Positions 4,887 through 59,374 are shown, counted from the first letter of the stretch. The stretch is 64,000 nucleotides of DNA from a virus (IMGVR_UViG_3300001485_000179:1501-65500), one strand, 5' to 3'. Notes: generated from the letters alone by a model not told the origin. A program made the numbers and translations.

Positions 4887-4914
4887 TTCGCGTAAAAAAC
4901 ATATGATATAATGA
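4887..4914 (+). promoter_or_regulatory. Phage promoter motif TTCGCG-N7-CA-N5-TATAATGA (copy 1)
   Basis: ttcgcgtaaaaaacatatgatataatga; same motif and spacing recur at 11 other sites, nearly all intergenic. Confidence 0.85.
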
Positions 4915-4915
4915 G

Positions 4916-5030
4916 AAGAATAGACGGATATACCAATCCGAATTATATATAGAATGGGAACGATTTAGAAGACTCATAGTGGTAGGTTAGAAAAGTATAA
5001 ATCGATATATAATTTACTATTCTTTTTTAT
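4916..5030 (+). ncRNA. Candidate structured small RNA (~110 nt)
   Basis: Directly after a promoter; nested complementary pairs 4916-4923/5017-5024, 4925-4929/4936-4940, 4941-4950/5005-5014, 4961-4967/4998-5004; ends in T-run; no RBS-led ORF. Confidence 0.6.
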
Positions 5031-7984: not shown

Positions 7985-8019
7985 AAGAGTTTAGGCGATT
8001 GACCTAGACTCTTATTTTT
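7985..8019 (+). terminator. Intrinsic terminator closing the 7698 cassette
   Basis: AAGAGTTTAGG/CCTAGACTCTT stem followed by atttttt-like run. Confidence 0.7.
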
Positions 8020-9449
8020 AAATAATTAGGAGTGATTTGTGATGAGTGAAATAAATATTAAAAATAAATATATTAGAACATCACGAGGTTATATAGGAAA
8101 AATTGATGCTGAGAGGTTGTCAAAAAATCAATTTCAATTTCATTTAGATAGTAATGAAGGGGATATTAACGATGAACATAATATATCTATAATGAATAAA
8201 TCTATAAAATGGAATGGATACAATGAAATAATTAAAGGTGCTGGACCTACAAATAATATATTAAAGTTATTAATAACTGGAGATATTGTAGTTATCGAAT
8301 ATTTTAATGGTGTTGAGACAGTTAGAGATACAGCTATAGTAAAAAGAAAAGATGATGAAAATAATATCATTTTATATTTCGATACTGGAACAGATCAATT
8401 ATTTAGATATTCTGATAATAGATTAGAATATGTTAGAAAGTTAAATTTATTAAAAAATGATGATTTATATACCACAGTAGGACCGAATAAAATAAAACCT
8501 AAAATAATAAGAATATTAACTGTTGAAAAAGTATTTATTGAAGGGTACAAATTATGATAAAAATAGAGGATTTGGAGTGTAAGTATTGTAAACCTGGCTC
8601 AATAATAGATATAAGTGGTGATTTACCGATAAGAATTGAAGTGGATCCAGACGGATATATAATATCTATTTACAATGGTATACATGAAGCAATTAAAATA
8701 AATTATTGTCCTATTTGCGGTAAAAAATTAAAAAAGGAGATTAAAAATGTCAGATGATAAAATAGATGATATTTTAAAAAAATTAAAGGTTATATTTCTC
8801 ACAGTATTGATAACTTTTATAATATTTATTGTGATATATTGTGAAATTTCAGGCGGTTGGTTTTAATTTAAATAATATTTTAAGAGGTGATTTATAATGG
8901 ATAAAAAAGAAATGATTTATAATATGTATAAAGATAGTGTTATAGTTAGTAAAAAATTTAAAAATATGTTAAAAGAAAAATATGGATTTAATGCCGTAGA
9001 AGCTGATGATTTATTTGTTAGAATAAATAATTATCAAATAAAGAAATATGGTGGTCGATTAGATGTTGATACACAAATCGGATTGACTAAAGAAGAATTG
9101 AAACATATAAATAAAATGGCTAGACAACGAGAAAATTCTAGAAAATATAGATAGGTGATATTTATGGCAGAATATATAATAGATAAAAGTACAAATGAAA
9201 AGTATGAATATGTTGTTTGGCGAATGAGTAGTACTGGAAACGGTAGTTGTTCTAAAAGTGTATTTCATAGCAATGATGAATCAGAATGCAAAAAGTTTAT
9301 TAGTAAACAACGTAGAAAAGATTCTTATAGAGCTAAGAAATTATTAAAACAACAAGAAAGTATCTCAGAAAAAAGACGTGTTTTACAAGAAGAGTATAAC
9401 GAAAGAATGCAATGTGTTAAAGGATACAGAAAAGATACGGAGGTTATTT

Positions 9450-10085
9450 ATGACTGATTTTGAACAATGGTATTGTGAGCATGATATATTAACAACTTAC
9501 AAAGCAGTTGTCGAGCATGAACATTTTATGAAAAGATATCATAAATTAGTATTAGATAATGAAAAACTTGTTTATTATGTTATTAAAAAATTAGGCATAA
9601 ATAAAGACAAAGATAATTTTTATGATATTGGTATGATTGGATTGTGTAAAGCTGCTAGAAGTTTTGATAGTAAATCTGATACGAAATTTAGTACTTATGC
9701 AATATCTTGTATTAAACATGAGATATATAATTATGGTAATAAAAAAGTGAATAAGCAATGGTTCAATATGCTTAGTTTAAATACTGATGCAACTGGATAC
9801 GGTGCAGATGTTATAGAATTAATACCAGACAATATAGATGTAGAAAATAGTGTTATAGAAAAAGAAACATATAAAGAATTGTATAATGCTATTAATCAAT
9901 TATCAGATATTGAGCAATTTGTTATAAACCACACATATGGTTTGAATGGGTGTAGTGTATTAACACAGAAAACTATTTTAAAAATGATATATAAAAAATT
10001 TGGTATTCAATATTGTCAATGCCAAGTTTCAAGAATTAAAACAAAAGCTATTAAAAAGTTAAAAAAGTTATTAAAAAATTTATAA
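9450..10085 (+). CDS. Sigma-70 family sigma factor (SigF/G/K-like regions 2 and 4)
   Basis: LVYYVIKK..FYDIGMIGLCKAARSFD..KFSTYAISCIKHEI; C-terminal LTQ..QVSRIKTKAIKKLK; GGAGG RBS supports ATG 9450. Confidence 0.85.
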   Translation: MTDFEQWYCEHDILTTYKAVVEHEHFMKRYHKLVLDNEKLVYYVIKKLGINKDKDNFYDIGMIGLCKAARSFDSKSDTKFSTYAISCIKHEIYNYGNKKVNKQWFNMLSLNTDATGYGADVIELIPDNIDVENSVIEKETYKELYNAINQLSDIEQFVINHTYGLNGCSVLTQKTILKMIYKKFGIQYCQCQVSRIKTKAIKKLKKLLKNL

Positions 10086-15400: not shown

Positions 15401-17136
15401 TTATATATTAATAGAGGTGTTCGGTGATAAGTTGAATGATATAGTTTTTAATATTCAAATTGTATGTATGTTTGTAGGTTTAGTGGTTGCCTTTTTTGAT
15501 TTTTTTATGCTTATTGCTTATCTAGATACTAGACACATCGATGAAGAAATCAAATTATATGAAGATGCTTTGCAAGAATCAGTAGAGACTTATGGTGTTG
15601 ATTCGTATTATTATACAAAAAATCATCAAACTCTTATGCAATTAAAACAAGATAAAATACATATTAAAGATTATAAATGGTTATTATATTTTGGAAAGTA
15701 GGTGCAAATGATGTCTGAAGAAGATGAAAAACGAGCAAGACAGGATTTAGAAAATAATCTTCCATATGATTATTGTAGAAGTTGCGATTCTCCAGATGGT
15801 TTATATCACGAATGGATAGATGAGGACAGTTGGCAATATAAAATTAAAATGCTATTAGAAGAAAAAGATAAAGAAATAGACTGTCAAAATAAATTAAGTG
15901 AAAAGGTAGAAAGACTAAATAATATCATGGATGAATTAGCAAAAGATTTGGCAAAGTGGTTAAATAAAATACAAGAATTAAAAGGAGATGATGTCGATGA
16001 ATAATGAAGATGAATCTAAAAGACGATTAAATAATATTATGCAATTTGTAGAAAATACAGTTATTATAGGTGGGTATGGATATGATTATAGAAAAGCTAT
16101 AAGAATGTTATACGAAGGTTGTGAATATGATGATGTATTAAATTGGTATAGCACACAGATAGGAGCTGAATAATAGAATGAGTGAGGGAGCAATAAAACA
16201 TTATATTAATGAGTATTTTGAAAAATATTGGGGTGTATCTTTTGATAAATTTCTTGAAAATAAAGAAGAGTCTGATGAAATTAGGGAATGGGCTTTGAAA
16301 GAGGTTAAAAGATTAAAAAATAAAAATGAAGAATTAAAAGGCCAATTAGAATTTTCAAAGTTGAGTAATCCTGAAATGAATTTGAGATATTCTAAATTGG
16401 TTAATTCTAATAGACGAAAAATAAATTGTTTACGAGAGGAAAACAAAAAATTAAAAGAACAATTGAGACAAAAGAAAAATATATTAAAAGCAATTGAAAT
16501 AATTTTAAAGGCTGATTATAGTTCATCTATTGATATTTTGAAATATATAAATGAATTAGGAGGTACAGATGAAGAAATTATTTAAAGTGAATGGTGACGA
16601 TTATGTTGTTGCTGGTAATTATCAAGAGGCTATAGAAACATGGCTAAAGTATTATAATAAATCCTGCTATATGAATCAAAATGATATAAAATCAATAGAA
16701 TTAGTAAAGAATGAAGTTATAGTGGAGGAATAATAGAATGATTTGGTTATTGACAATTATTATAGCATGTATTATAATCTGGAATATATTTGCCATATAT
16801 GCATTATATAATCTAGATGGTATAATGTTCGATATATGCGCAATTTATTTTAAAGCTATATATGCACTATTTTTAATAGGAATATTATTAGGAATTAGTT
16901 ATGGGATAAGTTATGGCATATTAGATGCTATGTGTGAAACAAAAGGTAATGATGCTAAATATTGTGAGGTGATTAAATGATAGGATGGATTGTTGGAATT
17001 ATATTGATGGCAATATTAGGATTATTTTTATATTGTTGTCTAAACATTAGTGATAAATATTATGAAAGAGAACTACATGAGATTTACGACGAAGCTTATA
17101 GGAATTATAGAAAGAGAGAAAAGGAGGAAGATAAAA

Positions 17137-17808
17137 ATGAGTCGGCTGAAAAGGAATAAAATTAGGGGTGCGATATTAGCTTTATTTTGTGTATTTGTGT
17201 TAGGTTTGGCGGTTATTTTTATAGGTAACCATCTAATTTATCATTATTATACAAACAACGCTGAGAAGGCCGTTTCTAGGGCTTACAGAGGGTGTTTTAC
17301 AAGGGTTGAAAATAGTGATGTTAGCAAAAATATTGAGAGTTTGGAGGAAGAAGAGTATGTTGGAGAAGATATTGAACAAGATAATCAATTGGTATTGGAT
17401 AACTTACGCGAAGGTAATGAGTATAGTTACGAAACGATAAACTATAGTGACACTTATGAAACTAGAATGACTAGCTATTGGGCTAATGATGGTTATGGTA
17501 CTGGCGATTGTACTGGAAGTGGTTTATGCAGTTGGGATTTCGGAGTTAATGAGCATGGGTGGTATACTTATAATGGTAAGTTAGTTGTTGCTACAGCTAC
17601 AACATATTTGACTAAGTATGGTTGGAGTTTAGCTAACGGGGTACGTACGTATAATTATTATGATGAAATTACTTTGGTAATAGATGGTGTTGATTATCCC
17701 GCTATCGTTTTAGATTCATGTGGGTCTAGTATGAGTAATGGTAGGATTGATTTATTTGTTAGTGGGGGTTGGGCTGTAAAAGATACGACTATATTAGTGA
17801 AAGAATAA
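17137..17808 (+). CDS. Membrane-anchored 3D-domain (DPBB, lytic-transglycosylase-like) protein
   Basis: AAGGAGG RBS before MSRLKRNK; N-terminal TM; RMTSYW, IVLDSCG, RIDLFV motifs. Confidence 0.65.
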   Translation: MSRLKRNKIRGAILALFCVFVLGLAVIFIGNHLIYHYYTNNAEKAVSRAYRGCFTRVENSDVSKNIESLEEEEYVGEDIEQDNQLVLDNLREGNEYSYETINYSDTYETRMTSYWANDGYGTGDCTGSGLCSWDFGVNEHGWYTYNGKLVVATATTYLTKYGWSLANGVRTYNYYDEITLVIDGVDYPAIVLDSCGSSMSNGRIDLFVSGGWAVKDTTILVKE

Positions 17809-17822
17809 TAGTGAGGTAACAG

Positions 17823-18203
17823 ATGAACGTAACACATTCATTAATAAGACAATTTAAATTAACTAAATTTGATTTTATGGGTTATCATTTGAATAAAAGT
17901 GATGCTACATATCATCATATTACTAAAAAAGAACATGGTGGAGATAAATCTTTTGAGAATGGGGCTGTTTTGATGCCTTATAATCATGAGTATTTGCACT
18001 TGATAGAGTATATAGACTTCGAAAAGTATGAGATAATTAACAATATGTTTAGGATTATGCATGCTAAAGGTAGGGTTGATGAGGAAGATTATATACTTAT
18101 TGGACAGATTTTAAGCTGTTTCGAACGTGAACATGAAGGGCAAAGACGAGCTAAAGGTAAATTATTGATAAAAAATGAGTTTTTAAGGAGGAAATTTAAA
18201 TGA
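17823..18203 (+). CDS. HNH-like endonuclease
   Basis: TYHHITKKEHGG..ENGAVL...HEYLH. Confidence 0.6.
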   Translation: MNVTHSLIRQFKLTKFDFMGYHLNKSDATYHHITKKEHGGDKSFENGAVLMPYNHEYLHLIEYIDFEKYEIINNMFRIMHAKGRVDEEDYILIGQILSCFEREHEGQRRAKGKLLIKNEFLRRKFK

Positions 18204-18436
18204 AAAATGTTAAAAATTATATTGAAAAGGTAAAAAATGTGGTTGAAAAAGAGGAAAATAAGAAGAAAATTAAGGCTTGTGGAGCTGGTTTAGCTCTTGG
18301 AATGGCTGGATTTATTGGGTATAAAGTAGGTTGTATGAGAGCAATTGGCAAGATTACTAATGAATTTTATATCATTTTAGAGGGTAAAAATGACCTAAAA
18401 AATGCTCTAAAAGAGGCTGTTGAAGAGTCAATTTAG

Positions 18437-18750
18437 GGTCAAAATTAGTGGACACTTTTGATTTTAAAAGTGGGCAAATGGTCAAAAAAAGTGGGCAAAT
18501 TGAAAAGTGAGTTAAGAGAGTTAATTGACAAAATGGCAAGAGAAGCCAAAATGGCCAAAAAAAGTGGGCAAATGGCCAAAAATTTTTACAAAAGTGGCCA
18601 GCGGAAACCGTTGATATATAAGGATTTTAGCTCAAAATGGTCAAAAACCCACTTTTTTTTTAAAACCGGACGAAAAATAACTTCAAATTGACAAAATGGC
18701 AATTTAAAGGTTTTATATTAATATATACATTTTTTGCAAAAAGTGGCCAC
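18437..18750. repeat. Cluster of short direct and inverted repeats; candidate replication origin
   Basis: AAAAGTGGGCAAAT at 18466, 18487, 18560; AAAAGTGGCCA at 18590, 18739; inverted CCCACTTTT at 18648; several AAATGG(C/T)CAAAA. Confidence 0.7.
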
Positions 18751-18783
18751 AAAGGATATTTACAAGGTGAAAGGAGTGATGAT

Positions 18784-19215
18784 GTGCATAGTACATTAGA
18801 AGGTCTTACAGATAATGAATTATATTTGTACGAATCTATGTTAAGAATTACATTTCCAATTTATAGAGATGAAAATGTAAAATCCGTTAAAGAATTAACG
18901 TCCGATCATTTATTGGTAGAATTCAAAAGTGGATTAAGAACTATATTTTGTAGAAGGGGACAAGAGTTTCTTAATGTCAGAGATCCCGAAGGTTATCATA
19001 GTGATGCACAAATACTTTATGAGTTTAAACACATGGTTATATATTGGATGCGACGTAGAGGCATGACTCAACAACAATTAGCTAAAATGACTGGTTATTC
19101 AGAATCAGCTATATCCAGATACATTAATCATAATCGTATGCCAGATATATTAGTATTGTCAAAATTAGCAAATGCACTAGATGTAACTATCGATGCATTC
19201 TTTTTATATTATTAA
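18784..19215 (+). CDS. XRE/Cro-type HTH transcriptional regulator
   Basis: RGMTQQQLAKMTGYSESAISRY..P..LSKLANALDV; AAAGGAG RBS supports GTG 18784. Confidence 0.85.
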   Translation: MHSTLEGLTDNELYLYESMLRITFPIYRDENVKSVKELTSDHLLVEFKSGLRTIFCRRGQEFLNVRDPEGYHSDAQILYEFKHMVIYWMRRRGMTQQQLAKMTGYSESAISRYINHNRMPDILVLSKLANALDVTIDAFFLYY

Positions 19216-19232
19216 AATTAGGAGGATATTTT

Positions 19233-19361
19233 ATGTATGGATTAATTAGTCTTATATTTGCGATAGCCGGACTAATGTCAAAAAATTTAGAAGCTTTAAA
19301 AATAGCTGGACTATTTGCAATAGCCGATGCTATAGTAGCTTTAAAATTTTTTAAAAAATAG
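19233..19361 (+). CDS. 42-aa hydrophobic protein
   Basis: AGGAGG RBS; MYGLISLIFAIAGL... Confidence 0.6.
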   Translation: MYGLISLIFAIAGLMSKNLEALKIAGLFAIADAIVALKFFKK

Positions 19362-19363
19362 TA

Positions 19364-19392
19364 CTCGCGTAAAAATCACGTCCTTTTATAGG
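19364..19392 (+). promoter_or_regulatory. Variant phage promoter motif with degenerate -10 (TTTTAT)
   Basis: ctcgcgtaaaaatcacgtccttttatagg keeps TCGCG and the CA at the conserved position. Confidence 0.6.
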
Positions 19393-19469
19393 AGAGAGAT
19401 GGAATATCGCTTACTTATTGTAACTTATTCTGTCTTCCTCTTTTCTTTTTTATTTAGGAGTGATTAAAA

Positions 19470-19763
19470 ATGAAATTGGAAAGTGAGTTTCAACATAATT
19501 TGAAAAAAGAGTTGAAAGAATTGCTTCCGGGTTGTATGATACTTAAGCTAGACCCGAATGATACTCAAGGTATTCCAGACTTATTAATTCTATATGAAAA
19601 TAAATGGGCTACTTTGGAAAACAAAAAATCAGCAAAAGCAAAACATCGACCTAATCAAGATTATTATGTTGAAAAAATGGATAATATGTCATTTTCAAGA
19701 TTTATATATCCAGAGAACAAAGAAGAGGTTGTTGAGAAACTCACTTCCTTTTTCAATAAATAG
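19470..19763 (+). CDS. VRR-NUC domain nuclease (putative Holliday-junction resolvase)
   Basis: LESEFQ, QGIPDLLIL, LENK, RPNQ motifs. Confidence 0.85.
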   Translation: MKLESEFQHNLKKELKELLPGCMILKLDPNDTQGIPDLLILYENKWATLENKKSAKAKHRPNQDYYVEKMDNMSFSRFIYPENKEEVVEKLTSFFNK

Positions 19764-19778
19764 AAAGGAGCGATATAA

Positions 19779-20336
19779 ATGATATTTAAAAATCATTCTA
19801 ATCTCGAAGGTACTCATGCACCATTCTCAGCAAGTAAATCAAGTTGGTTAAGATATACCGATGAGAAAATAGTAGAGGTTAGAGATAACATGAAAGCAAA
19901 AGAGCTAGGAACTCGTTTGCATGAATGGGCTGCAGAAACTATAAAGCTAGGTATTAAAATGCCTAGAACAAAGAAAACTATAAATGCATATGTTAATGAT
20001 GCTATTGGTTTTAATATGACTCCAGAAGTGGTTTTATTTTATTCTATGTATTTTTATGGTACAGCAGATACTATAAACTACAATGAAAAAACAAAGGTGT
20101 TAAGAATACATGATTTAAAGACTGGTAAAATTCCAGCGCATATGGATCAATTGATTGTGTATGCTGCATTATTTTGTTTGGAATATAAAGTTGACCCTAA
20201 GGAGTTAACATCAATAATATTAAGAATATATCAATGTGACGATATTATAGAGTATTTACCAACTGCTGAAGAAGTAATTGATGTTATGAATATAATTGTT
20301 CATTTTGATAATGTGTTAAGAGAGGGTGATAATTAG
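19779..20336 (+). CDS. PD-(D/E)XK exonuclease-like protein
   Basis: SASKSSWL, GTRLH, YGTAD, IHDLKTG, QLIVYA. Confidence 0.8.
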   Translation: MIFKNHSNLEGTHAPFSASKSSWLRYTDEKIVEVRDNMKAKELGTRLHEWAAETIKLGIKMPRTKKTINAYVNDAIGFNMTPEVVLFYSMYFYGTADTINYNEKTKVLRIHDLKTGKIPAHMDQLIVYAALFCLEYKVDPKELTSIILRIYQCDDIIEYLPTAEEVIDVMNIIVHFDNVLREGDN

Positions 20337-20337
20337 A

Positions 20338-23300
20338 ATGAGTCAAAAATTAGCTGATGAAATAATTAGTTATTTGGGTTCTTCTAAATGGTCTGAAGAG
20401 GAATTTCTAGAACATGTCGGATTAGACCATATTGAATCTAAAGTTGGTCCAGGTTCTGGAAGATATCATTATGGTTCTGGTGATAAACCAATTCAAAGAC
20501 CTAAAGATTTCCTGCAAGAAGTTGAACGATTAAAATTAGGTGGTTGGAAAGAGACTCCTGAAAATATTAAAAATACTTTTGGATTATCTATAAATGATTA
20601 CAGAGCAGAAAAAAGAATCTGTAAAGAAGACAGACAAGCAGTTATATTTTCTAGAGTAAGAAAAATAATGGAAGAACATCCTACTTGGGGAGATACTCAA
20701 ATAGGTAGAGAATTAGGAAATGTTAGTGAATCTACAGTTAGAGGCTATAAACTACAGATGGCTAAAACTAAAGAAAATCAAACTAGAGATTTGGCAGCTT
20801 CTCTAAAGAAAAGAATAGATGAATCTAAATATGGAATGATTGATGTTGGTAAAGGTGTAGAAAAAGAAATAAATGTATCTAGAGAAAAATTAGATGCTGC
20901 TTTATATTTACTAGAAAAAGAAGGCTACGGAACATATAGTAACCGTATTCCACAACCAACAAATAAAAATAACCAAACCATTCAAAAAGTATTATGTAAA
21001 CCAGAAATAAAACCATCAAAAGGAAAAAGTACACCTGCTGAATTATATAATTATGACCAGATTGAAACACTAACAAAATATATTTCTAGAGATAATGGTA
21101 AAACATTAGAAAAGAAATTTAATTACCCAGAGTCATTAGATTCTAAGAGATTGAAAATAAGATATGCTGAAGATAAAGATTCTGATGGTATTAAAGGTGT
21201 TGATAAAGATGGTGTTATTGAATTAAGAAGAGGTGTTAAAGATTTAAGTCTTAATGGCGACCATTATTCTCAAGTTCGTATATTAGTTGATGGAACACAT
21301 TATTTAAAAGGTATGGCTGTTTATGGCGACGACAAAGACTTTCCACCAGGAGTAGATGTTATATTCAATACTAATAAACCTAGAGGAACTCCAGTTATGG
21401 ACCCTGATAAAAATGTAAAACAAGTATTGAAAAATATTAAGAACGATCCAGAAAACCCTTTTGGTTCTACAATAAAAGATGCAGACCAAGGTGGACAATA
21501 TTGGTATACTGATGAAAAAGGTAAAAAGAAATTAGGTTTAATTAATAAGAAATCAGCTGAAGGTGATTGGACTGAATGGTCTGATGCATTACCTTCACAA
21601 TTCTTATCTAAGCAAAGTATTACATTGATTAAGAAACAGTTAGGTTTAGCAAAAGCAAACAAAACAGAAGAGTTCGAGGAAATAAATAATTTAACAAATC
21701 CAGTTATAAAGAAATACTATCTTCAAAAGTTTGCTGATGGTTGTGATAAGGCTGCTGTAGATTTAAAAGCCGCTGCTTTACCAGGACAAAAATATCATGT
21801 TATTATACCTAATAATACATTAAAAGAAGACGAAGTTTATGCTCCTGGGTATGCTGATGGTACTAAATTAGCATTAATAAGATATCCACATTCTGGAACA
21901 TTCGAAATTCCAGTATGTACTGTTAACAATAAAAATAAATTAGGACAAAAATTAATTGGCAAATCGGATACTATTGATGCTGTATGTATTAATAAAAAAG
22001 TAGCAGACCAATTATCAGGCGCTGATTTTGATGGCGATACTGTAATGTGTATTCCAACTGACGATCCTAAAGGCAGAGTAAAAGTTTCTAGAAGACCATA
22101 TTTACAGGATTTGAAAGACTTTGATCCTGGAATGTATGAAGGTGAACCAGTTTACGATTCTAATGGTAAAATAAAAACAGATAATAAAGGTAACAAAATA
22201 TATAAATATGACGGTCATGAATTTACAGCTATGTCAAACAGAACTAAACAAAGAGAAATGGGTGTAGTTTCAAATCTTATAACTGATATGACATTACAAG
22301 GTGCTAATGACAAAGATTTAGCAATGGCTGTTAAACATTCTATGGTTGTTATTGATGCTGAAAAACATAAATATGATTATAAAGCAAGTGAAATAGATAA
22401 TGAAATATCTAGATTAAAAGCAAAGTATCAAATAAAGAGAGATGCTGATGGAAATGTTATAGGTTATGGTGGAGCAGGAACTATTGTTTCTAGAGCTAAA
22501 GGAGAAGAAAGAATAGACAAAAGACAAGGACAACCTAAAGTAAATATTAAAGGTAAATCCTATTATGACCCAAATAAACCAGAAGGTTCTCTAATATACA
22601 CTCAAGCAGACCCTAGTAAACTATACTTTGCTGTAAGTAGCATCGACCAAACTACTGGTATAAGGACTATGACTACTATAGATGGTAAAAAGATATCCTA
22701 TGATACAAGGGATCCTAAGGCTAAAGATAAATATGCCCCAGTATTACATGTAGCTAAAGATGGTACTGGATATTATACAAATAAAAAAGGTGACATAATT
22801 TATAGAACCACTAAAAGAACTGATACAAGTACAAGAATGGCTGAAGCAGACGATGCTAGAACCCTAATAGGAGACCCTCATAATGCTAAGGAGATAGCCT
22901 ATGCTGACTATGCTAATAGTCTAAAATCACTAGCTAATAATGCTAGACTAGAGATATATAATACTAAGAACTTACAATATAACCCTACCGCTGCTAGACA
23001 GTATGCTAAACAGGTTAGCTCACTAGAAGCTAAGCTAAATGACGCACAGAAGAACGCATGGAGGGAGAGGGAAGCATTACGTAAATCTAATGTAGAATTA
23101 AGTAAACGTATATCTGAGGACCCTTCATTATCAGGAGAAGACCTTAAAAAGCTTGGCCAACGTTCTCTAAGCAAGAATAGAGAAGAGATAGGGTCTGTTT
23201 CTAGAAGAAAACGTAATATAACAATTGATGACGAAGAATGGGAAGCTATACAAGCAGGCGCTATAAGTAACAATAAATTAAAGCAAATACTTGACAATTC

Positions 23301-23475
23301 AGATCCTGATTCTTTAAGACAAAGAGCAATGCCTAAACCACAAGTTTCACTTTCGCCAGCACAAATAGAAAGAGCTAAGCGAATGGCTGATTCTAACTTT
23401 ACTATAGAACAAATAGCTAAAAAGATGGGCGTTTCTAAGTCTACACTTTATAAGTATTTGAAAGGAGTTGAATAA
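20338..23475 (+). CDS. Single-chain double-psi-beta-barrel RNA polymerase (YonO/RdRP-like) with HTH domains
   Basis: LIRYPHSG (R-x-P) and LSGADFDGD catalytic motifs; C-terminal HTH FTIEQIAKKMGVSKSTLYKYL; N-terminal HTH-like DTQIGRELGNVSESTVR. Confidence 0.75.
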   Translation: MSQKLADEIISYLGSSKWSEEEFLEHVGLDHIESKVGPGSGRYHYGSGDKPIQRPKDFLQEVERLKLGGWKETPENIKNTFGLSINDYRAEKRICKEDRQAVIFSRVRKIMEEHPTWGDTQIGRELGNVSESTVRGYKLQMAKTKENQTRDLAASLKKRIDESKYGMIDVGKGVEKEINVSREKLDAALYLLEKEGYGTYSNRIPQPTNKNNQTIQKVLCKPEIKPSKGKSTPAELYNYDQIETLTKYISRDNGKTLEKKFNYPESLDSKRLKIRYAEDKDSDGIKGVDKDGVIELRRGVKDLSLNGDHYSQVRILVDGTHYLKGMAVYGDDKDFPPGVDVIFNTNKPRGTPVMDPDKNVKQVLKNIKNDPENPFGSTIKDADQGGQYWYTDEKGKKKLGLINKKSAEGDWTEWSDALPSQFLSKQSITLIKKQLGLAKANKTEEFEEINNLTNPVIKKYYLQKFADGCDKAAVDLKAAALPGQKYHVIIPNNTLKEDEVYAPGYADGTKLALIRYPHSGTFEIPVCTVNNKNKLGQKLIGKSDTIDAVCINKKVADQLSGADFDGDTVMCIPTDDPKGRVKVSRRPYLQDLKDFDPGMYEGEPVYDSNGKIKTDNKGNKIYKYDGHEFTAMSNRTKQREMGVVSNLITDMTLQGANDKDLAMAVKHSMVVIDAEKHKYDYKASEIDNEISRLKAKYQIKRDADGNVIGYGGAGTIVSRAKGEERIDKRQGQPKVNIKGKSYYDPNKPEGSLIYTQADPSKLYFAVSSIDQTTGIRTMTTIDGKKISYDTRDPKAKDKYAPVLHVAKDGTGYYTNKKGDIIYRTTKRTDTSTRMAEADDARTLIGDPHNAKEIAYADYANSLKSLANNARLEIYNTKNLQYNPTAARQYAKQVSSLEAKLNDAQKNAWREREALRKSNVELSKRISEDPSLSGEDLKKLGQRSLSKNREEIGSVSRRKRNITIDDEEWEAIQAGAISNNKLKQILDNSDPDSLRQRAMPKPQVSLSPAQIERAKRMADSNFTIEQIAKKMGVSKSTLYKYLKGVE

Positions 23476-23478
23476 TCT

Positions 23479-23757
23479 ATGAATAATGAAGAAGAAACAA
23501 AAGAATTCATGTTAACGACAATTGATAATCCTTATAATCCTTTCACACAATTTGATGAATGGTTTCAGTTTGATGTTGACAATAATTATTCAACTTGTTC
23601 AAAGATTGCAAGACTTGCAAACATTAAAGATTACATGTCAAATGCTCAAAAAGATGAAGAAACAGCAAAAGCTATTGATAGATTAATTGAAATTGATCCT
23701 TTTGATGTGTATGTAAAGGTATATAGTACCGAAAAAGACATAGGGGAGGGGGTCTAA
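23479..23757 (+). CDS. Conserved hypothetical protein preceding the genome end
   Basis: 92 aa, MLTTIDNPYNPFTQFDEW motif, AAGGAG RBS. Confidence 0.8.
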   Translation: MNNEEETKEFMLTTIDNPYNPFTQFDEWFQFDVDNNYSTCSKIARLANIKDYMSNAQKDEETAKAIDRLIEIDPFDVYVKVYSTEKDIGEGV

Positions 23758-23815
23758 AAACATACCCCCCGTCCTTTATCGCGCCCCTCTTTAAAAATTC
23801 TCCGGAAAGGATTTT
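23742..23815. other. Probable cos/genome-terminus region (candidate 9-nt overhang CGCGCCCCT at 23780-23788)
   Basis: GC-rich island (GGGGAGGGGG...CCCCCC...CGCGCCCCT...TCTCCGGA) just upstream of terS candidate, HNH and terL. Confidence 0.6.
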
Positions 23816-23828
23816 TGAAAAAACATTT

Positions 23829-24002
23829 TAGCATAGGTAGTGCTTAGTGTGACTTATAAGTTGAAATGACATTTTATCGCAGCTCACTCCTAATTATTTA
23901 AACGTATAAAAAGACATCATTTATATCGCTCCTTTCCTTGTAAACCACCATAAAAACTATACATAAAGTCCTTATAAGTCACGCTAAGCATTATCTATAC
24001 TA
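23829..24002 (+). ncRNA. Candidate multi-target antisense RNA: 32-bp stem with anti-RBS loop
   Basis: Arms 23829-23860 and 23971-24002 (28 WC, 3 G.U, 1 mismatch); loop 23884-23902 is the reverse complement of 8017-8035; loop 23916-23936 is the reverse complement of 19763-19783. Confidence 0.7.
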
Positions 24003-24034
24003 TTATAAAAAGCTAGATAAATAGTTAGAAAGGA

Positions 24035-24373
24035 GTGATGACTATTACAAAAGTATCTAACGATATGAAACCTGCTCTAACTCCAGAAGCTAAAGAGAAT
24101 CAAATGATATACTTAGCGACCTCACTAGCCGAAAAACAATTAAAAGATGGTACTGCATCTTCTCAAGTAATAACACATTATTTAAAATTAGCAACTGAAG
24201 AGACACGAAGAAAAAATAAATTACTAGAAATGCAAACTAAGTTAGCCGCTGCTAAAACAGAATCATTAGAATCTGCTAAAGAAATAGAAGAACTATATAA
24301 AGAGGCTATAAAAGCAATGAACCACTATAAAGGTCTTGATGAGGAGAATGAATTAGAGAATGGTCAACAATAA
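24035..24373 (+). CDS. Putative terminase small subunit
   Basis: First gene after the cos candidate; PALTPEAKENQMI, GTASSQVITHYLKL, coiled coil. Confidence 0.55.
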   Translation: MMTITKVSNDMKPALTPEAKENQMIYLATSLAEKQLKDGTASSQVITHYLKLATEETRRKNKLLEMQTKLAAAKTESLESAKEIEELYKEAIKAMNHYKGLDEENELENGQQ

Positions 24374-24791
24374 AAATATTAAAACTTATTCAGAATTAAG
24401 TAAGTTAAAAACTTTTGAAGAGCGATTTGATTACCTTAATCTAAACGGAGTAGTTTGTGAAGAGACTTTTGGTTTTGATAGATATTTAAACCAAAAATTT
24501 TATAATTCAACTGAATGGAGAAATATTAGAAATAGAGTAATAGCTAGAGATAAAGGTTGTGACTTGGGATGTGATGGTTATGAAATAAATTATGACAAAA
24601 TATTAATTCACCACATGAATCCAATAACTCAAGATGATATAATAAATAAATCAAAATATTTATTAGATCCTGAGTATCTTATAACAACTGTTAAAAAAAC
24701 TCATGATGCTATACATTATGGTGATAGGAGTGAATTATATCCAGAACCAGTTGAAAGATTTAAAAATGATATGTGTCCATGGATACATTAA
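24360..24791 (+). CDS. HNH endonuclease (packaging-associated)
   Basis: W..IRNRVIARDKGCD, LIHHMNP, THDAIHYG. Confidence 0.85.
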   Translation: MVNNKNIKTYSELSKLKTFEERFDYLNLNGVVCEETFGFDRYLNQKFYNSTEWRNIRNRVIARDKGCDLGCDGYEINYDKILIHHMNPITQDDIINKSKYLLDPEYLITTVKKTHDAIHYGDRSELYPEPVERFKNDMCPWIH

Positions 24792-24804
24792 GGAGGAATA
24801 AAAA

Positions 24805-25251
24805 ATGAGTAGAAGTAACTATAGAAGTTATTATAAAGAAAAAGAAAATAATGAAGATATTAAAGATAATATCGTAGATAATGTTGAAGATGATGTTAAA
24901 GATGATATCGTAGAAGACATTAACGATGATGTTAAAGATGACGTTGTAGATAATGTTGAAGATGATGTTAAAGATGATATCGTAGAAGACATTAACGATG
25001 ATGTTAAAGATGACGTTGTAGATAATGTCGAAGATGATGTTAAAGATGATGAAATAACAGTAGGTGTTGTTGTTAATTGTACAAGATTAAATGTTAGAAG
25101 AACTGCTAATAGATTATCAAAAGTTTTAACAGTAATAGAAAAAGGAACTAGTGTAATTATAGAAAACGCAAAACCATCTAATGGATTTTACAAAGTAAAA
25201 GTAGATGATATAGAAGGTTATTGTGTAAAAGATTATATAGAAATTAGATAA
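24805..25251 (+). CDS. Acidic-repeat protein with C-terminal SH3b domain
   Basis: Asp/Val repeats, then LNVRRTAN..VLTVIEKG..GFYKV..EGYCVKDYI. Confidence 0.8.
   Translation: MSRSNYRSYYKEKENNEDIKDNIVDNVEDDVKDDIVEDINDDVKDDVVDNVEDDVKDDIVEDINDDVKDDVVDNVEDDVKDDEITVGVVVNCTRLNVRRTANRLSKVLTVIEKGTSVIIENAKPSNGFYKVKVDDIEGYCVKDYIEIR
24874..25050 (+). repeat. 72-bp tandem repeat (~2.5 copies, 12-bp subperiod)
   Basis: Units start at 24874, 24946 and 25018. Confidence 0.9.
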
Positions 25252-25262
25252 GGTGATTGCTT

Positions 25263-25601
25263 ATGTTTGATGAAAGCATATTAGACTCTATAAAGAAAAT
25301 GCTAGGTATAGAACCATCTTGTGAAGATTTCGATTCAAGTATAATAAGTCACATCAACACTGCTTTCATGACATTAAATCAGTTAGGTGTTGGTCCTGAA
25401 AAAGGATACCGAATAAAAAATAATTCTAATGAATGGAAAGAATTCATAAATGAAGATATGCAGTTAGATGATGTTAAAGACTATATTTATTTAAAAGTTA
25501 AAATGATATTTGACCCACCTATAAATGGTTCAATTATAGAATCTTACAAACAAACTATTCAAGAATTAGAATGGCGATTAATGATAAAAGGAGATGAGTA
25601 A
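25263..25601 (+). CDS. Head-tail adaptor/connector protein
   Basis: SILDSIKKMLG, HINTAF..L.QLGVGP, FDPP, ELEWRL. Confidence 0.7.
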   Translation: MFDESILDSIKKMLGIEPSCEDFDSSIISHINTAFMTLNQLGVGPEKGYRIKNNSNEWKEFINEDMQLDDVKDYIYLKVKMIFDPPINGSIIESYKQTIQELEWRLMIKGDE

Positions 25602-25603
25602 TA

Positions 25604-26197
25604 ATGGATAATCAACAAAATAACTCAGATGAATTATATCATTATGGTAGAATAGGAATGAAATGGGGTCAACATATATTTGGTGATATTAAAAAAACAG
25701 CCCTAGCATATGTTAAAAGAAAAAATAAAGAAAAGAACATAAATGAAAATACCAAAATGCAAATAAAGAAATTAAAAAAGCTTGCTAAAGAAGAAGCAAG
25801 AAAAAGAAAATTTCAGAAAAAGCAAAATAAAAAAATAGCAAACGCTAAAAAACATATATTAGATAAATATGGTATAGATTATGGTAAAGACAATGTCCCA
25901 AATAAAGAAAAACCAGTTACAAAAAGTAACCAATTATCTAAAAAACAAATAAAAAATCTATCAGATACAGATTTAAGTGAACGTTTAAAAAGATTAGAAA
26001 ATGAGAAAAAACTTATAGAATTACAGAGTTACCATGCTACACTAGGTCAAAAATTTATACGATCAGCCATGAAAGATCTGCTTATTCCAGGTGCTATCAA
26101 AGCCGGAAAAGAACTAACAGCTAAGTATTTACAAAAATATGGCGATATGGGACTTGAAGCCCTTGGTGAAGAATTAAATAAAAAGAGGAAAAAGTAA
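25604..26197 (+). CDS. Basic protein with ELYHYG..GMKWG N-terminal motif
   Basis: DELYHYGRIGMKWGQH, Lys-rich body. Confidence 0.75.
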   Translation: MDNQQNNSDELYHYGRIGMKWGQHIFGDIKKTALAYVKRKNKEKNINENTKMQIKKLKKLAKEEARKRKFQKKQNKKIANAKKHILDKYGIDYGKDNVPNKEKPVTKSNQLSKKQIKNLSDTDLSERLKRLENEKKLIELQSYHATLGQKFIRSAMKDLLIPGAIKAGKELTAKYLQKYGDMGLEALGEELNKKRKK

Positions 26198-27942
26198 TGG
26201 CATTATCTAATACAGCTACACCTAAGTATTACGCTATGTTTAGGGATGCTGTAATAAAGGGTGAGATAGCGATAAATGAAAACATCGAAATGGAAATGAA
26301 CCGAATCGATGAATTAATAAAAAATCCTGGCTTTTATTATGACGATAAAGCTATGGATGGTTGGATAGATTTTTGTGAAAACGAATTAACACTAACAGAC
26401 GGTAGTGATTTGAAATTACTCGACTCATTTAAATTATGGGCCGAAGAATTGTTTTGTTGGTATTATTTTGTAGAACGTAGTGTATATATGCCATCTAAAG
26501 ATGGATATGGTGGTTATTATGTTAGAAAAAAGATTAAAAAGAGATTAATAAATAAACAATATCTTATAGTAGCGAGAGGAGCCGCTAAATCGCAATATCA
26601 ATCATATATTCATCAATATTTTTTAAATGTAGATACATCAACCACACATCAAGTTCACATAGCACCAACAATGTATCAAGCAGAGCAAGTATTAGCGCCA
26701 ATGAGAACCTCTATAGCCAGAGCTAAAGGCCCACTGTTTAAATTTTTAACAGAAGGTTCTATAAATAACACAACTGGTAATAGAGCGAAAAGACCAAAAT
26801 TGGCTCCTACAAAAAAGGGTATTGAAAATTTCTTAACTAATTCATTAGTAGAAATAAAACCAATGTCCATAGATAAAGTTCAAGGACTAAATAGTAGAAT
26901 AAATACTGTTGATGAATGGTTATCAGGCGATATAAGAGAAGATGTTATAGGTGCACTTGAACAAGGAGCTTCTAAAAACGATGATTATCTTATAGTTGCT
27001 GTTAGCTCAGAGGGTACCGTAAGAAATGGTCCTGGTGATACAATCAAAATGGAGCTTATGGATATTCTAAAAGGCGAATATTACAATCCACATGTGTCTA
27101 TATGGTGGTATAAATTAGATAGTATAGATGAAGTAGGTCAACCTGATAAATGGATAAAAGCAAATCCAAATTTAGGTAAAACGGTTTCTTATGAAACATA
27201 CCAGCTCGACGTAGAAAGAGCCGAAAAAGCCCCTTCTAATAGAAATGATATTTTAGCTAAACGTTTTGGAATACCAATGGAAGGTTATACTTATTTCTTT
27301 ACCTATGAAGAAACATTACCACATAGAAAATCTGAATATTTCGGTATGCCATGTTCTTTAGGGGCCGATTTATCTCAAGGTGACGACTTTTGTTCATTTA
27401 CTTTCTTGTTTCCACTTCGCGATGGAGCTTTTGGTATAAAAACAAGAAATTATATAACTGAAAGAACCTTAAATAGATTACCGGGAGCCATGAGATTAAA
27501 GTATGATGAATTTATAAATGAGGGTACTTTAATAATAATGGATGGTACTATATTAGACCCTATGGAGATATATGATGATCTTACTCAATATATAGAGGAT
27601 GTCCAATATGATGTTAGATCATTTGGATATGACCCATATAATGCAAAAGATTTTGTAGAAAGATGGGAAAGAGAAAACGGACCATATGGAATAGAGAAAG
27701 TAATACAAGGAGCTAAGACTGAATCGGTTCCATTAGGAGAAATAAAAATGTTAGCCGAAGACAGATTACTACTATTCGATGAATTAATAATGAAATTCAC
27801 TATGGGTAACTGTATAATATTACAAGATACTAATGGTAATAAAAAGTTATATAAGAAAAGATCAGACCAGAAAATCGATTCAGTAGCTGCTATGATGGAT
27901 GCTTATGTAGCTTATAAAAATAATAGAGAAGCTTTTGAATAA
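26197..27942 (+). CDS. terL: Terminase large subunit
   Basis: VARGAAKS Walker A, TVDEW Walker B, GADLSQGDD nuclease, YDPYN, KIDSVAA. Confidence 0.95.
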   Translation: MALSNTATPKYYAMFRDAVIKGEIAINENIEMEMNRIDELIKNPGFYYDDKAMDGWIDFCENELTLTDGSDLKLLDSFKLWAEELFCWYYFVERSVYMPSKDGYGGYYVRKKIKKRLINKQYLIVARGAAKSQYQSYIHQYFLNVDTSTTHQVHIAPTMYQAEQVLAPMRTSIARAKGPLFKFLTEGSINNTTGNRAKRPKLAPTKKGIENFLTNSLVEIKPMSIDKVQGLNSRINTVDEWLSGDIREDVIGALEQGASKNDDYLIVAVSSEGTVRNGPGDTIKMELMDILKGEYYNPHVSIWWYKLDSIDEVGQPDKWIKANPNLGKTVSYETYQLDVERAEKAPSNRNDILAKRFGIPMEGYTYFFTYEETLPHRKSEYFGMPCSLGADLSQGDDFCSFTFLFPLRDGAFGIKTRNYITERTLNRLPGAMRLKYDEFINEGTLIIMDGTILDPMEIYDDLTQYIEDVQYDVRSFGYDPYNAKDFVERWERENGPYGIEKVIQGAKTESVPLGEIKMLAEDRLLLFDELIMKFTMGNCIILQDTNGNKKLYKKRSDQKIDSVAAMMDAYVAYKNNREAFE

Positions 27943-27954
27943 GGAGGAAACAGA

Positions 27955-28362
27955 ATGGAATTATACCACAGTGATAAATATCTAGGAACTGATTATTCTG
28001 ATGGAATTAAGCATTGGAAATATGTAAAGAGAGAAATGAAAAATGGACGATGGGTTTACTATTACGATACAACACCTTTGGCTAACGAAAAAGAAGGATT
28101 GAAAAGAAATATAAAAACCGATAAATATATGTTAAAATATCAATTACGAGATATTACACCACAGAGGGATGGTAGGTTATATGGGCCATCGTATTATAAA
28201 AGAGCCCTACGTCAAGATCGTATCGATTTAGCAAAAACAAATGCTAAAATGAAAGGTATAAAAATAGCTACTAAATCACTAAATGAAATTTCCAAATATC
28301 GTGATATTGGTAAAAAGAAAATAAATAAAATATTTAATAAATTAAAGAATAAAAGAAGGTGA
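27955..28362 (+). CDS. Basic hypothetical protein (ELYHS / IKHWKY..NGRWVYYY)
   Basis: AAGGAGG RBS, 135 aa. Confidence 0.7.
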   Translation: MELYHSDKYLGTDYSDGIKHWKYVKREMKNGRWVYYYDTTPLANEKEGLKRNIKTDKYMLKYQLRDITPQRDGRLYGPSYYKRALRQDRIDLAKTNAKMKGIKIATKSLNEISKYRDIGKKKINKIFNKLKNKRR

Positions 28363-28367
28363 TATTA

Positions 28368-28574
28368 ATGTATGTTTTAACTATAACCGAAAATAATGAA
28401 TTAAAATATTTTTCTAATCTATCATATAATGGTATTTTTACTGATTCTGATATACATAGGTCTGTTATATTTACTAGTTCGTCATCAGCTGCTAGTCAAA
28501 GTGCTATATTACATGAAATCGATGCTAATAGAACATTTACTGTAAAACAAATAACATTACAAGATATTAGTTAG
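28368..28574 (+). CDS. Hypothetical protein
   Basis: AGGTGA RBS before ATG 28368. Confidence 0.55.
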   Translation: MYVLTITENNELKYFSNLSYNGIFTDSDIHRSVIFTSSSSAASQSAILHEIDANRTFTVKQITLQDIS

Positions 28575-28585
28575 GAGGTGATATA

Positions 28586-29143
28586 GTGAATGATGATCAA
28601 AATAACAGCCTAAAACATTTTGGTGTACCTGGAATGCGATGGGGTGTAAGGAGAACATCTGAACAATTAGGTTATAAAATTGATAAATATCGTAATAAAA
28701 ATGCTAAATTAAGTGATTATGCTAAACAGCAACGTAGTAAATCAGAAGAATTAGCTAAAAAAGCTTTAAAATTTAGAAATAAACAATCTAAATGGCAAAA
28801 GAAATTAGATAAAGCGACTGCTAAAAAAGCAAAATTTGATTATGCTGTATATAAACAATCTAATAAACGTATCGGTAAGCCAAATATTGAGAAAATAGCA
28901 AAATATACAGCTAAAGCTATACAGCAACAGCATAAAATAGAAAAAGCACAAAAGCATATTAAATTTAATAAATACCAATTAAAATCAGACAAGGCTAAAG
29001 CAAAAGCTTTAAAAGCCGAAAAATATATAAAGAAAAATGAAAGAATGATATCTATGTATAAAAACACTATACGAGATATTGATTCTGGAACTATTAATAC
29101 TGGTAAAAGTTTTATAATGAAATATTCTAAACCAGATAAATAA
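28586..29143 (+). CDS. Basic coiled-coil protein with SLKHFG.PGMRWG motif
   Basis: N-terminus paralogous to ORF 25604. Confidence 0.75.
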   Translation: MNDDQNNSLKHFGVPGMRWGVRRTSEQLGYKIDKYRNKNAKLSDYAKQQRSKSEELAKKALKFRNKQSKWQKKLDKATAKKAKFDYAVYKQSNKRIGKPNIEKIAKYTAKAIQQQHKIEKAQKHIKFNKYQLKSDKAKAKALKAEKYIKKNERMISMYKNTIRDIDSGTINTGKSFIMKYSKPDK

Positions 29144-29163
29144 AATAATAAGGAGGATTTAGA

Positions 29164-59305: not shown

Positions 59306-59374
59306 ATATTATTAACATATCCTTTTATTTTTCGCGTTAATTACAGGGCTTATAATGAGAGGAGAGATAAATAT

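Follow-up and report, generated by a model that had tools for sequence, protein, structure and literature searches.

The stretch of DNA analysed here, referred to as the window, comprises 64,000 of the 65,500 bases of the virus record IMGVR_UViG_3300001485_000179, which has direct terminal repeats and whose completeness is estimated as full. The window has a GC content of 30%, and its plus strand carries nearly every gene. At positions 20338..23475 of this strand lies a gene for a protein of 1045 amino acids (117.6 kDa, isoelectric point (pI) 9.1), named P0001 in the following, which is almost certainly a single-chain member of the two-barrel RNA polymerase family. It is a new, low-GC member from a gut metagenome, and this kind of polymerase has itself already been predicted in print. 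The open reading frame is listed as 20326..23475 (+) with 1049 residues if a GTG start is used. The ATG at 20338 is the likelier start because it is located 1 nt past the stop codon of the upstream Cas4-like gene and is preceded by a GAGGG run approximately 9-13 nt upstream. Among the non-structural genes only that of a primase-polymerase of 1350 amino acids is larger. The reading frame and every motif quoted in a preliminary description of the locus could be located in the window sequence, all on the plus strand: FLEHVG at residues 23-28 (20404-20421), GSGRYHYGSG at residues 39-48 (20452-20481), LIRYPHSG with R515-x-P517 at residues 513-520 (21874-21897), and GADFDGD with the metal-binding loop D563/D565/D567 at residues 561-567 (22018-22038).

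A megablast search of the region 15000-30000 of the window against phage sequences gave no match. Five stretches inside the polymerase gene were matched without any difference by contigs of an RNA library (run X3) made from the source's own sample, and two stretches by contigs of a library of another study (run X18). In run X3 almost no cover is listed over 8000-19300, to which no meaning is attached. Both runs were found by using the polymerase gene and consist of contigs only, and RNA libraries can contain DNA; the contigs hint at transcription of the gene only weakly, at best.

Family membership and conservation

The PHROGs profile phrog_4291, 'RNA-dependent RNA polymerase' (RdRP), covers residues 39-1043 of P0001 with positions 20-907 of its 909 (E 3.8e-297). 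By tblastn, homologues were detected in 250 phage records, of which 249 span at least 80% of the query and every one is less than 60% identical; the top identity to any record of the phage collection is 52.8%. The homologues come from phages of Arthrobacter (95 records), Gordonia (55), Streptomyces (54) and Lactococcus (13), and also from Faecalibacterium phages and gut-virome records. P0001 is 41.7% identical to AUV56548 of the Faecalibacterium phage FP_oengus and 35% identical over the full length to orf75 of the Lactococcus phage 1706 (E 2e-153). At least 8000 matches were returned by a word-indexed family search, and an HMMER search of representatives at 50% identity returned at least 1756 clusters at E<=1e-3 (793 at E<=1e-30).

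Conservation was assessed in an alignment of 107 family members, each 42-54% identical to P0001. Residues R515, P517, S560, G561, A562, D563, D565, G566, D567, K676 and H677 are invariant in all 107 sequences, as are D291, G292, R297, Q312, R314, K324, G325, D340, K365 and F375 of the first barrel. The matches to the polymerase motifs therefore go beyond chance. The Pfam family RdRP (PF05183) matches residues 554-697 with 15.9 bits (E 0.0056), which is below its gathering cut-off of 23.8 bits; 19 of 48 relatives reach E<=0.01 with it, the lowest value being 5.2e-6. From the sequence we regard this link as a distant relation and not as a membership under Pfam's rule. A phmmer search of P0001 against the sequences of the PDB gave a chance match only (E 0.75).

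Koert et al. (bioRxiv 10.1101/842583) predicted an RNA polymerase with a DxDGD motif and helix-turn-helix (HTH) elements at both ends (HHpred match to RdRP of 95.68%) and describe the family as a signature of an 'actinobacteriophage supercluster' and of the group of Lactococcus phage 1706 and Faecalibacterium phage FP_oengus. Ruprich-Robert & Thuriaux 2010 (PMC2919709) had listed phage 1706 in silico among five YonO-like families. The assignment of P0001 as a polymerase is thus sound yet not new, since the family has been described in both of these in silico studies. No experimental study of the phrog_4291-type polymerase family was found in a literature search. The preliminary description rightly expected that automatic annotation would see an HTH protein only: among the 40 phage records listed, 29 carry an HTH or DNA-binding label and five are hypothetical, four name a polymerase, one has a 'transcription factor D5' and one is not annotated.

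Predicted fold and catalytic core

An AlphaFold2 model based on the 107-sequence alignment reached a predicted local distance difference test (pLDDT) score of 88.1 and a predicted template modelling (pTM) score of 0.85. In a Foldseek search of the PDB the RNA polymerase QDE-1 fills the top ten places (best E 1.3e-8), followed by plant RDR2, P74 gp62 and P32 gp64; further down come Pol IV, Pol II, Pol III and the ASFV enzyme, each represented by its largest subunit. VIA-align superposed residues 263-873 of the model on residues 681-1186 of the QDE-1 chain (369 residues, root mean square deviation 4.7) with a Z score of 14.5. The corresponding Z scores were 14.0 for maize RDR2, 13.4 for P74 gp62 and 11.2 for P32 gp64, and residues 478-712 aligned with Rpb1 of Pol II at a Z score of approximately 10.6. 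A search of a library of predicted viral structures returned phage proteins named RdRP and A7XX94 of P23-45.

The first beta-barrel region, a proposed double-psi barrel of the beta/Rpb2 type, corresponds to residues ~263-410 (21124..21567, +), with model strands at 272-407 inside the stretch aligned to QDE-1. The second corresponds to residues ~478-575 (21769..22062, +), is supported by invariance and by the alignment to Rpb1, and contains R515-x-P517 and D563-F-D565-G-D567. In the model the two double-psi barrels would form one active site, and the pair postulated in the preliminary description is borne out on the predicted structure, as judged from the alignments with the QDE-1 core and P74 gp62. 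An R-x-P upstream of DxDGD was equated with R446/P448 of Rpb1 by Ruprich-Robert & Thuriaux (PMC2919709); by order and spacing, R515/P517 presumably are the equivalent residues of P0001. The first barrel region harbours the invariant residues D291, D340, K324 and K365, which may include counterparts of the invariant aspartate and the two invariant lysines of beta/Rpb2-like barrels (D837, K979 and K987 of Rpb2). In summary, the phrog_4291 match, the invariant motifs, the AlphaFold2 model and the structural matches uphold the description of P0001 as a homologue of single-chain two-barrel polymerases with fused HTHs, and we consider it probable that the protein is an active DNA-dependent transcriptase.

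Helix-turn-helix modules

HTH elements had been described near both termini. The C-terminal one is firm: residues 1004-1042 (23347..23463, +) match Pfam HTH_7 above the cut-off (E 9.9e-9), and the same element is matched by Sigma70_r4_2 in 41 of 48 family members, P0001 itself giving only E 0.036. The N-terminal one is weaker and rests on low-scoring profile matches and on helices of the model. This helical, putatively DNA-binding region (residues ~58-142; 20509..20763, +) comprises two HTH-like helix pairs, 58-67/74-81 and 119-125/131-142. Residues 106-135 match the DNA-binding protein profile phrog_32138 (E 2.7e-4), and the sole Pfam HTH match of the N-terminal region, that of HTH_32 to residues 50-165, is weak (E 0.082); HTH_23 is matched by 46 of 48 relatives.

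The N-terminal motif and the DUF7211 proteins of the head module

The stretch FLEHVG...GSGRYHYGSG (residues 23-48; 20404..20481, +) is a candidate peptide for virion targeting or processing. Disorder is predicted for residues 15-48 (pLDDT <50), yet G28, S40, G41, R42 and G48 are invariant in the 107 sequences and H26 is conserved in at least 90% of them, a combination characteristic of a short linear motif. In the family as a whole the consensus reads acidic-x-L-x-H-Y-G-(4 to 12 residues)-S-G-R-Y-P-W-G-S-G-x-x-P-Y-Q-H, from which P0001 deviates by HVG in place of HYG and by a long spacer.

Two basic proteins of the head module begin in a comparable manner (acidic-L-x-H-[YF]-G-x-x-G-M-[KR]-W-G). 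One is a DUF7211-type protein of 197 amino acids (pI 10.0; LYHYGRIGMKWG) that is encoded at 25604..26197 (+), directly upstream of the large terminase gene. Its score with Pfam DUF7211 is 23.4 bits (E 3.9e-5), under the cut-off of 27 bits, and 25.9 bits in a genome scan. The other, a DUF7211 protein of 185 amino acids (pI 10.2; LKHFGVPGMRWG), is encoded at 28586..29143 (+) between the terminase and portal genes and exceeds the cut-off (38 bits, E 1e-9). Both proteins are rich in lysine and helical; their genes flank that of the terminase, and one of them occupies the place expected for a small terminase. DUF7211 was present in the head module, next to the genes of terminase and portal, in all four lineage genomes scanned, with two proteins in the window, four in the Arthrobacter phage Salk (genes 7, 9, 10 and 11), one in FP_oengus and, in phage 1706, a single protein with two matches (orf7, upstream of the terminase gene). 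No paper mentioning DUF7211 was found in a literature search.

The resemblance between these proteins and the polymerase was quantified at the level of the families. A hidden Markov model (HMM) that we built from 14 DUF7211 N-termini gave at least 6 bits with 55 of the 107 polymerase N-termini, compared to 11 of 10,700 shuffled sequences, and hhalign aligned the polymerase N-termini with the DUF7211 N-termini over 17 columns (probability 90.8%, P 1.2e-6). As far as sequence comparison goes, the resemblance is real at the family level and weakest in P0001. Prediction of a complex between the protease-capsid fusion of the phage (632 amino acids) and residues 1-60 of the polymerase scored 0.00 against a mark of 0.32 in a run without controls and is uninformative either way.

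A separate observation concerns the acidic linker of the same S78 protease-capsid fusion (30567-32465), where 36 close relatives all share M237-K-H239, L252-x-H254 and L284-x-H286. In a three-way alignment with FP_oengus and Salk, L252/H254 alone is kept. L-x-H may be a protease or maturation site common to the fusion and the N-terminal tags, but the motif is too short for such a claim.

Evidence for a possible association with the virion

The best available evidence for packaging comes from phage 1706. In the depositors' GenBank record (EU081845.1), the polymerase homologue orf75, which has the N-terminus DDSLQHYGTKRHSGRYPWGSG, and the DUF7211 protein orf7 are both designated 'structural protein', that is, both proteins of this phage that bear the motif carry this label. 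The record uses 'putative ...' for assignments by homology, 'unknown', and the plain term 'structural protein' for a specific set of genes, which includes genes far from the morphogenesis module. The labels are said to go back to virion mass spectrometry by Garneau and colleagues in 2008, which we treat as an unconfirmed lead only. No virion proteome of a relative was found in a literature search. The packaging postulated in the preliminary description is strengthened by the two labels and remains unproven; on balance, we lean slightly towards P0001 being associated with the virion.

A promoter of the phage lineage

The hexamer TTCGCG occurs 14 times in the window (4.07 expected). Ten plus-strand copies have the form TTCGCG-N14-TATAAT and are intergenic, located at 4887, at 7698 and within 59331-63074. 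The promoter in its full form, TTCGCR-N6-(A/T)CA-N5-TATAAT-GAGA, was located by pattern and position weight matrix (PWM) in 11 copies on the plus strand, one at 4887..4918 and the others starting at 7698, 59331, 59650, 59884, 60135, 60527, 60945, 61113, 62086 and 63074. The PWM was built from ten sites of the window and applied with the maximum of shuffled sequence as threshold; twelve plus-strand sites of the window and none of the minus strand exceeded it, counting 59650 and a variant at 19364. This variant, CTCGCG-N6-TCA-N5-TTTTAT-AGG (19364..19395, +; score 18.4, shuffled maximum 18.2), is located upstream of the operon of VRR-Nuc, Cas4 and polymerase genes. No copy was found by the PWM in the structural block of the window at 24-56 kb. 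Directly before the corresponding operon, copies that are usually weaker or variant are also present in Salk (50463), FP_oengus (27682) and MT835495 (607 and 1195). Because a copy precedes its operon in four phages, we place the polymerase gene under the TTCGCR promoter class.

When applied to Salk, the PWM of the window detected nine plus-strand and no minus-strand sites with up to 33.1 bits (shuffled maximum 14.2). In MT835495 it detected two sites, both just before the polymerase operon, and in FP_oengus one site at the same relative place; phage 1706 gave no match. The layout TTCGCR-N6-ACA-N5-TATAAT-GAGA is common to the window, Salk, Tanis (12 clean copies) and RosaAsantewaa (one copy). 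Two further phages have variants in which the spacing is kept, namely TyCrCA-N6-ACA-N5-TATAGT-AGA in 1706 (12 copies, seen de novo) and GACGCG-N6-rCA-N5-CTTTAT-GGA in FP_oengus (11 copies). A pattern shared by all of these was found on the plus/minus strands 11/1 times in the window, 12/0 in Salk, 14/0 in the part of the Tanis genome available, 7/0 in 1706 and 11/1 in FP_oengus, compared to 1/0 in a 20-kb control from SPbeta and to means of 0.08-0.34 in Markov resamples; for the window, Salk, Tanis, 1706 and FP_oengus these means are 0.14-0.31.

Other promoter motifs did not emerge. TATAAT-anchored k-mers and 9-mer counts revealed no repeated promoter motif in MT835495, where the frequent TCAAAATGG was rejected as a candidate because it equals the start-codon context. 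A generic scan for sigma-70 promoters and terminators at 8000-26500 gave 137 hits, not above the 128.7 of shuffled sequences, and no separate late promoter motif was found in scans of the window.

The conservation of boxes and spacing in phages of Actinomycetota and Bacillota suggests that the promoter is read by a phage-encoded factor. The same is suggested by CTTTAT at the -10 place in FP_oengus; in our judgement CTTTAT-GGA is a poor -10 element for sigma-A. Candidates for such a reader were taken from the list of conserved genes of Koert et al. (bioRxiv 10.1101/842583), and among the genes listed there only the polymerase and the adjoining small protein would seem able to act in transcription. 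A sigma factor gene is absent from all three relatives searched (FP_oengus, Salk and MT835495), which is in agreement with this assumption. The TTCGCG promoter of the preliminary description accordingly stands as an architecture conserved in relatives on hosts of two phyla, and its reader is unproven: the chances that P0001 itself reads the TTCGCR promoter appear evenly balanced to us.

Downstream of the tail and lysis genes, at 59331-63400, promoter copies and small genes are combined as cassettes in an array. The same place is occupied by arrays of genes for small membrane proteins in phages of the Arthrobacter clusters AM/AU, in Rhodococcus Pepy6/Poco6 and in the Gordonia cluster DJ (PMC5513430, PMC13313380, PMC9671010).

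Genomic neighbourhood

Upstream of the polymerase gene are genes for a VRR-Nuc-like endonuclease (19470-19763, +; phrog_93, E 1.1e-15) and a Cas4/RecB-like exonuclease (19779-20336, +; phrog_3953, E 1.5e-63). The order VRR-Nuc, Cas4, polymerase is common to Salk, FP_oengus, RosaAsantewaa, Tanis and 1706. Directly downstream, at 23479..23757 (+), is the gene of a small acidic protein (92 amino acids, pI 4.2, motif TIDNPYNPF; phrog_4303, E 3.8e-27). A gene of similar size directly follows that of the polymerase in Salk (gp87), FP_oengus (AUV56549), 1706 (orf76), RosaAsantewaa (gp55) and Tanis (gp93), and in the list of Koert et al. (bioRxiv 10.1101/842583) the polymerase is followed by a 'conserved hypothetical protein'. 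Possibly the phrog_4303 protein serves the polymerase as an accessory subunit or factor.

The next 277 nt (23758..24034), in front of the HNH and terminase genes, are non-coding, contain G/C-rich runs (for example GGGGAGGGGG and CCCCCCG) and probably represent cos, the physical end of the genome, to judge from their composition and place; according to Kot et al. (PMC4110766), the 3' cos overhangs of phages of the 1706 type are rich in G/C. The polymerase gene is likewise placed last among the large genes, at the right end of the genome, in Salk, FP_oengus, 1706, RosaAsantewaa and Tanis. The surroundings of the gene are hence conserved, with the nucleases upstream, the small protein downstream, and the genome end and packaging module adjoining. 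The packaging and head module comprises, all on the plus strand, the HNH gene (24360-24791), the large terminase gene (26197-27942), the portal gene (29164-30552) and the gene of the S78 protease-capsid fusion (30567-32465). A gene located between the HNH gene and the head module (24805-25251, +) encodes a protein in which a long acidic repeat (DNVEDDVKDDIVEDINDDVKDDVV) occurs twice and the C-terminus carries an SH3_3 domain (E 1e-6).

At the left end of the window a primase/helicase-polymerase fusion of 1350 amino acids is encoded (834-4886, +; phrog_4210, 1972.7 bits; Pfam DUF5906), and the genes of a single-strand annealing protein (5072-5575, +) and of a helicase (5860-7083, +) come next. 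Primase-polymerase, annealing protein and helicase are also present in 1706, RosaAsantewaa and Tanis. A sigma factor is encoded at 9378..10085 (+; Pfam Sigma70_r2, E 2.1e-9; phrog_351 on residues 45-233, E 4e-27), downstream of the promoter copy at 7698, and was found in this phage only among the four records searched; it bears on the question of which enzyme reads which promoter.

Relation to known polymerases

The polymerase of 1706, FP_oengus and the actinophages as described by Koert et al. resembles P0001 in full-length homology, DxDGD motif, HTHs and gene order up to the genome end. Nothing essential is different, although P0001 has a longer spacer in its N-terminal motif, HVG in place of HYG, and resides in a phage with a sigma factor. 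The best structural matches to the core, over 360-369 residues, are QDE-1 of Neurospora and plant RDR2 (PF05183), with which it has the DxDGD loop in common. The identity is only 10-15%; P0001 lacks the N-terminal region of QDE-1, and QDE-1 lacks the HTH modules and the phage N-terminal motif. P23-45 gp64 and P74-26 gp62 (Chaban et al. 2024, PMC10770324) are, like P0001, single-chain two-barrel RNA polymerases of siphoviruses and are described as transcriptases of the non-virion type. In contrast to P0001 they have approximately 590 amino acids, the account given there reports no fused HTHs, and they show no detectable sequence relation to it. A precedent for the delivery of a polymerase by a siphovirus is the virion polymerase gp96 (PMC10770324), in which the tape measure protein and not an N-terminal peptide is the carrier. 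YonO of SPbeta is a single-chain DxDGD polymerase of approximately 100 kDa that is, like P0001, encoded just upstream of a structural block, and provides a functional model for a sigma-independent two-barrel enzyme of a phage (Forrest et al. 2017, PMC5467207).

Other virion polymerases differ in architecture. The N4 enzyme has a T7-like fold, unlike the two-barrel P0001, and gp66 of phi14:2, a crAss-like phage, carries its two-barrel domain in a podovirus protein of more than 2000 amino acids. Neither was present among the fold matches listed for the P0001 model. Their logic, that is, late synthesis, packaging, injection and transcription from early promoters, would be the same if P0001 is carried in the virion. 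Internal head proteins of phage T4 have a short N-terminal capsid-targeting peptide, which is present on otherwise unrelated proteins and is removed by the prohead protease. The N-terminal motif of P0001 may be similar to these peptides in kind, and no sequence similarity is claimed.

Mechanistic models

We consider it moderately probable that P0001 is a self-contained two-barrel RNA polymerase with a QDE-1/RDR-like core (residues ~260-870) flanked by HTHs, which is carried in the virion and reads the lineage promoter. The polymerase would be produced together with the late proteins, its gene being the last large one ahead of the cos end and of the packaging genes. It would then be taken into the virion, presumably by means of the disordered LxH(Y/V)G...SGRYxxGSG peptide, which is in kind common to the basic DUF7211 proteins of the head module. 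On infection, it would transcribe early and middle genes from TTCGCR-N6-ACA-N5-TATAAT-GAGA, its own HTHs providing the specificity. Family, motifs, predicted fold, conservation and promoter are the computed basis of this model, from which we infer DNA-templated transcription, carriage in the virion and the identity of the promoter reader.

Several observations weigh against this model. Among enzymes of solved structure, P0001 is closest to QDE-1 and RDR2, both of them RNA-dependent or dual. The profile of the 107-sequence family was aligned with YonO by hhalign at a probability of only 0.19%, a comparison of low power as the target was a single sequence; a sequence kinship with YonO, which the preliminary description had named as a relative by motif, is thus not detectable in this way. 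The likeness of the N-terminus to head proteins, also claimed there, fared better in part: both head proteins exist and the resemblance holds family-wide. The Pfam model of DUF7211 (PF23847, 25 positions), on the other hand, gave no match to residues 1-60 of P0001 at E<=10, Salk and FP_oengus, when scanned at E<=1, gave matches in genes of the head module only and none in the polymerase gene, and the HMM built by us did not match P0001 itself. The label 'structural protein' of orf75 could not be traced to any experiment, and DNA-binding proteins can co-purify with virions. In the RefSeq record NC_010576.1, orf75 was renamed 'RNA-dependent RNA polymerase' in place of 'structural protein', and consequently the only hint of a virion association of the polymerase family has become hidden. 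With respect to the promoter, neither MT835495 (1/1) nor RosaAsantewaa (1/0) is enriched for the shared pattern, and only the PWM result is independent since the pattern was written after the sites had been seen. The -10-like element agrees perfectly with TATAAT, some copies also having TG upstream, and Henson et al. 2022 (PMC9671010), who describe five copies of a 50-bp TATAAT motif in the Gordonia cluster DJ phage Vardy, read it as a sigma-70 -10 element. Finally, the phage encodes a sigma factor of its own, and the replacement of a sigma factor by the HTHs, as put forward in the preliminary description, is not supported in that form.

A perfect TATAAT, read as a sigma-70 -10 element, would be expected if P0001 were a middle or late transcriptase similar to YonO that stays outside the virion, with the host RNA polymerase reading the early genes and the polymerase operon via TATAAT, perhaps aided by a phage activator at TTCGCR around -30 in the way of MotA at T4 middle promoters. 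The polymerase would then produce a long structural transcript across the joined cos, and the N-terminal motif would serve a role other than packaging. The arrangement of the genes fits such a model: the polymerase gene is located directly before cos and a structural block (24-56 kb) without TTCGCR promoter, yonO likewise directly precedes the terminase/portal block of SPbeta and has the same orientation, and YonO transcribes the late genes of SPbeta (Forrest et al. 2017, PMC5467207). A promoter copy before the polymerase operon in four phages is also in keeping with a host-read promoter. Conservation of spacing and upstream hexamer in phages of hosts from two phyla, however, points to a phage-encoded reader, and CTTTAT-GGA at the -10 place of FP_oengus, the structural-protein label of 1706 orf75 and the failure to find a separate late promoter motif are also difficult to accommodate; no MotA- or AsiA-like gene was identified, though no search was aimed at one. 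Altogether, we judge a polymerase acting outside the virion to be rather unlikely.

The nearest solved folds, QDE-1 and RDR2, the only polymerase match in Pfam (PF05183) and the position of the gene at the end of a replication and recombination module (helicase, annealing protein, VRR-Nuc, Cas4) could also be explained by an enzyme of the QDE-1/RDR kind that uses single-stranded DNA or RNA as template, for example in priming or support of recombination-dependent replication or in anti-defence, and is tethered to phage DNA by its HTHs. The phage, however, already has a primase-polymerase of 1350 amino acids (phrog_4210), and four HTH-like units together with matches to sigma region 4 in 41 of 48 relatives suggest sequence-specific binding of duplex DNA; moreover, the solved single-chain relatives from phages, P23-45 gp64 and P74 gp62, are transcriptases (PMC10770324). 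Such a copying function therefore appears improbable to us. Even less probable to us is that P0001 derives from a polymerase but has lost catalysis and acts as a DNA-binding regulator or structural protein, a reading which is in line with the HTH or DNA-binding labels of 29 of the 40 listed records and with the designation chosen by the depositors of 1706 but hard to reconcile with R-x-P and all three aspartates of DxDGD being invariant in 107 members that are 42-54% identical to P0001.

If the model of a virion-carried, promoter-reading polymerase is extended to the whole lineage, that is, to the phages of Lactococcus, Faecalibacterium, Arthrobacter, Gordonia and Streptomyces and to gut phages, a very large cross-phylum group of siphoviruses would carry its polymerase in the virion by a short N-terminal, DUF7211-like LxHYG...G..WG peptide and start transcription by itself from a tripartite promoter of fixed spacing. 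The constancy of the promoter across host phyla would then follow from its being read by the phage and not by the host. We put this extension forward tentatively and rate its chances at somewhat less than even.

Implications for the phage family

P0001 adds one more member to a published family, and the value of its description is in the correction of the usual label 'HTH DNA-binding protein'. The family is very common (at least 1756 clusters and 250 phage records), and many of its phages are student-isolated, easily grown actinophages. Should both the carriage in the virion and the reading of the promoter be true, a compact two-barrel system of approximately 118 kDa would provide promoter-specific, sigma-independent transcription from a promoter of approximately 30 bp in hosts of two phyla, and DUF7211 would receive its first function, that of a virion-targeting peptide. 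Such a system would bear on the evolution of cellular RNA polymerases and on the escape of phages from host transcription, and might give rise to orthogonal expression tools for Gram-positive bacteria.

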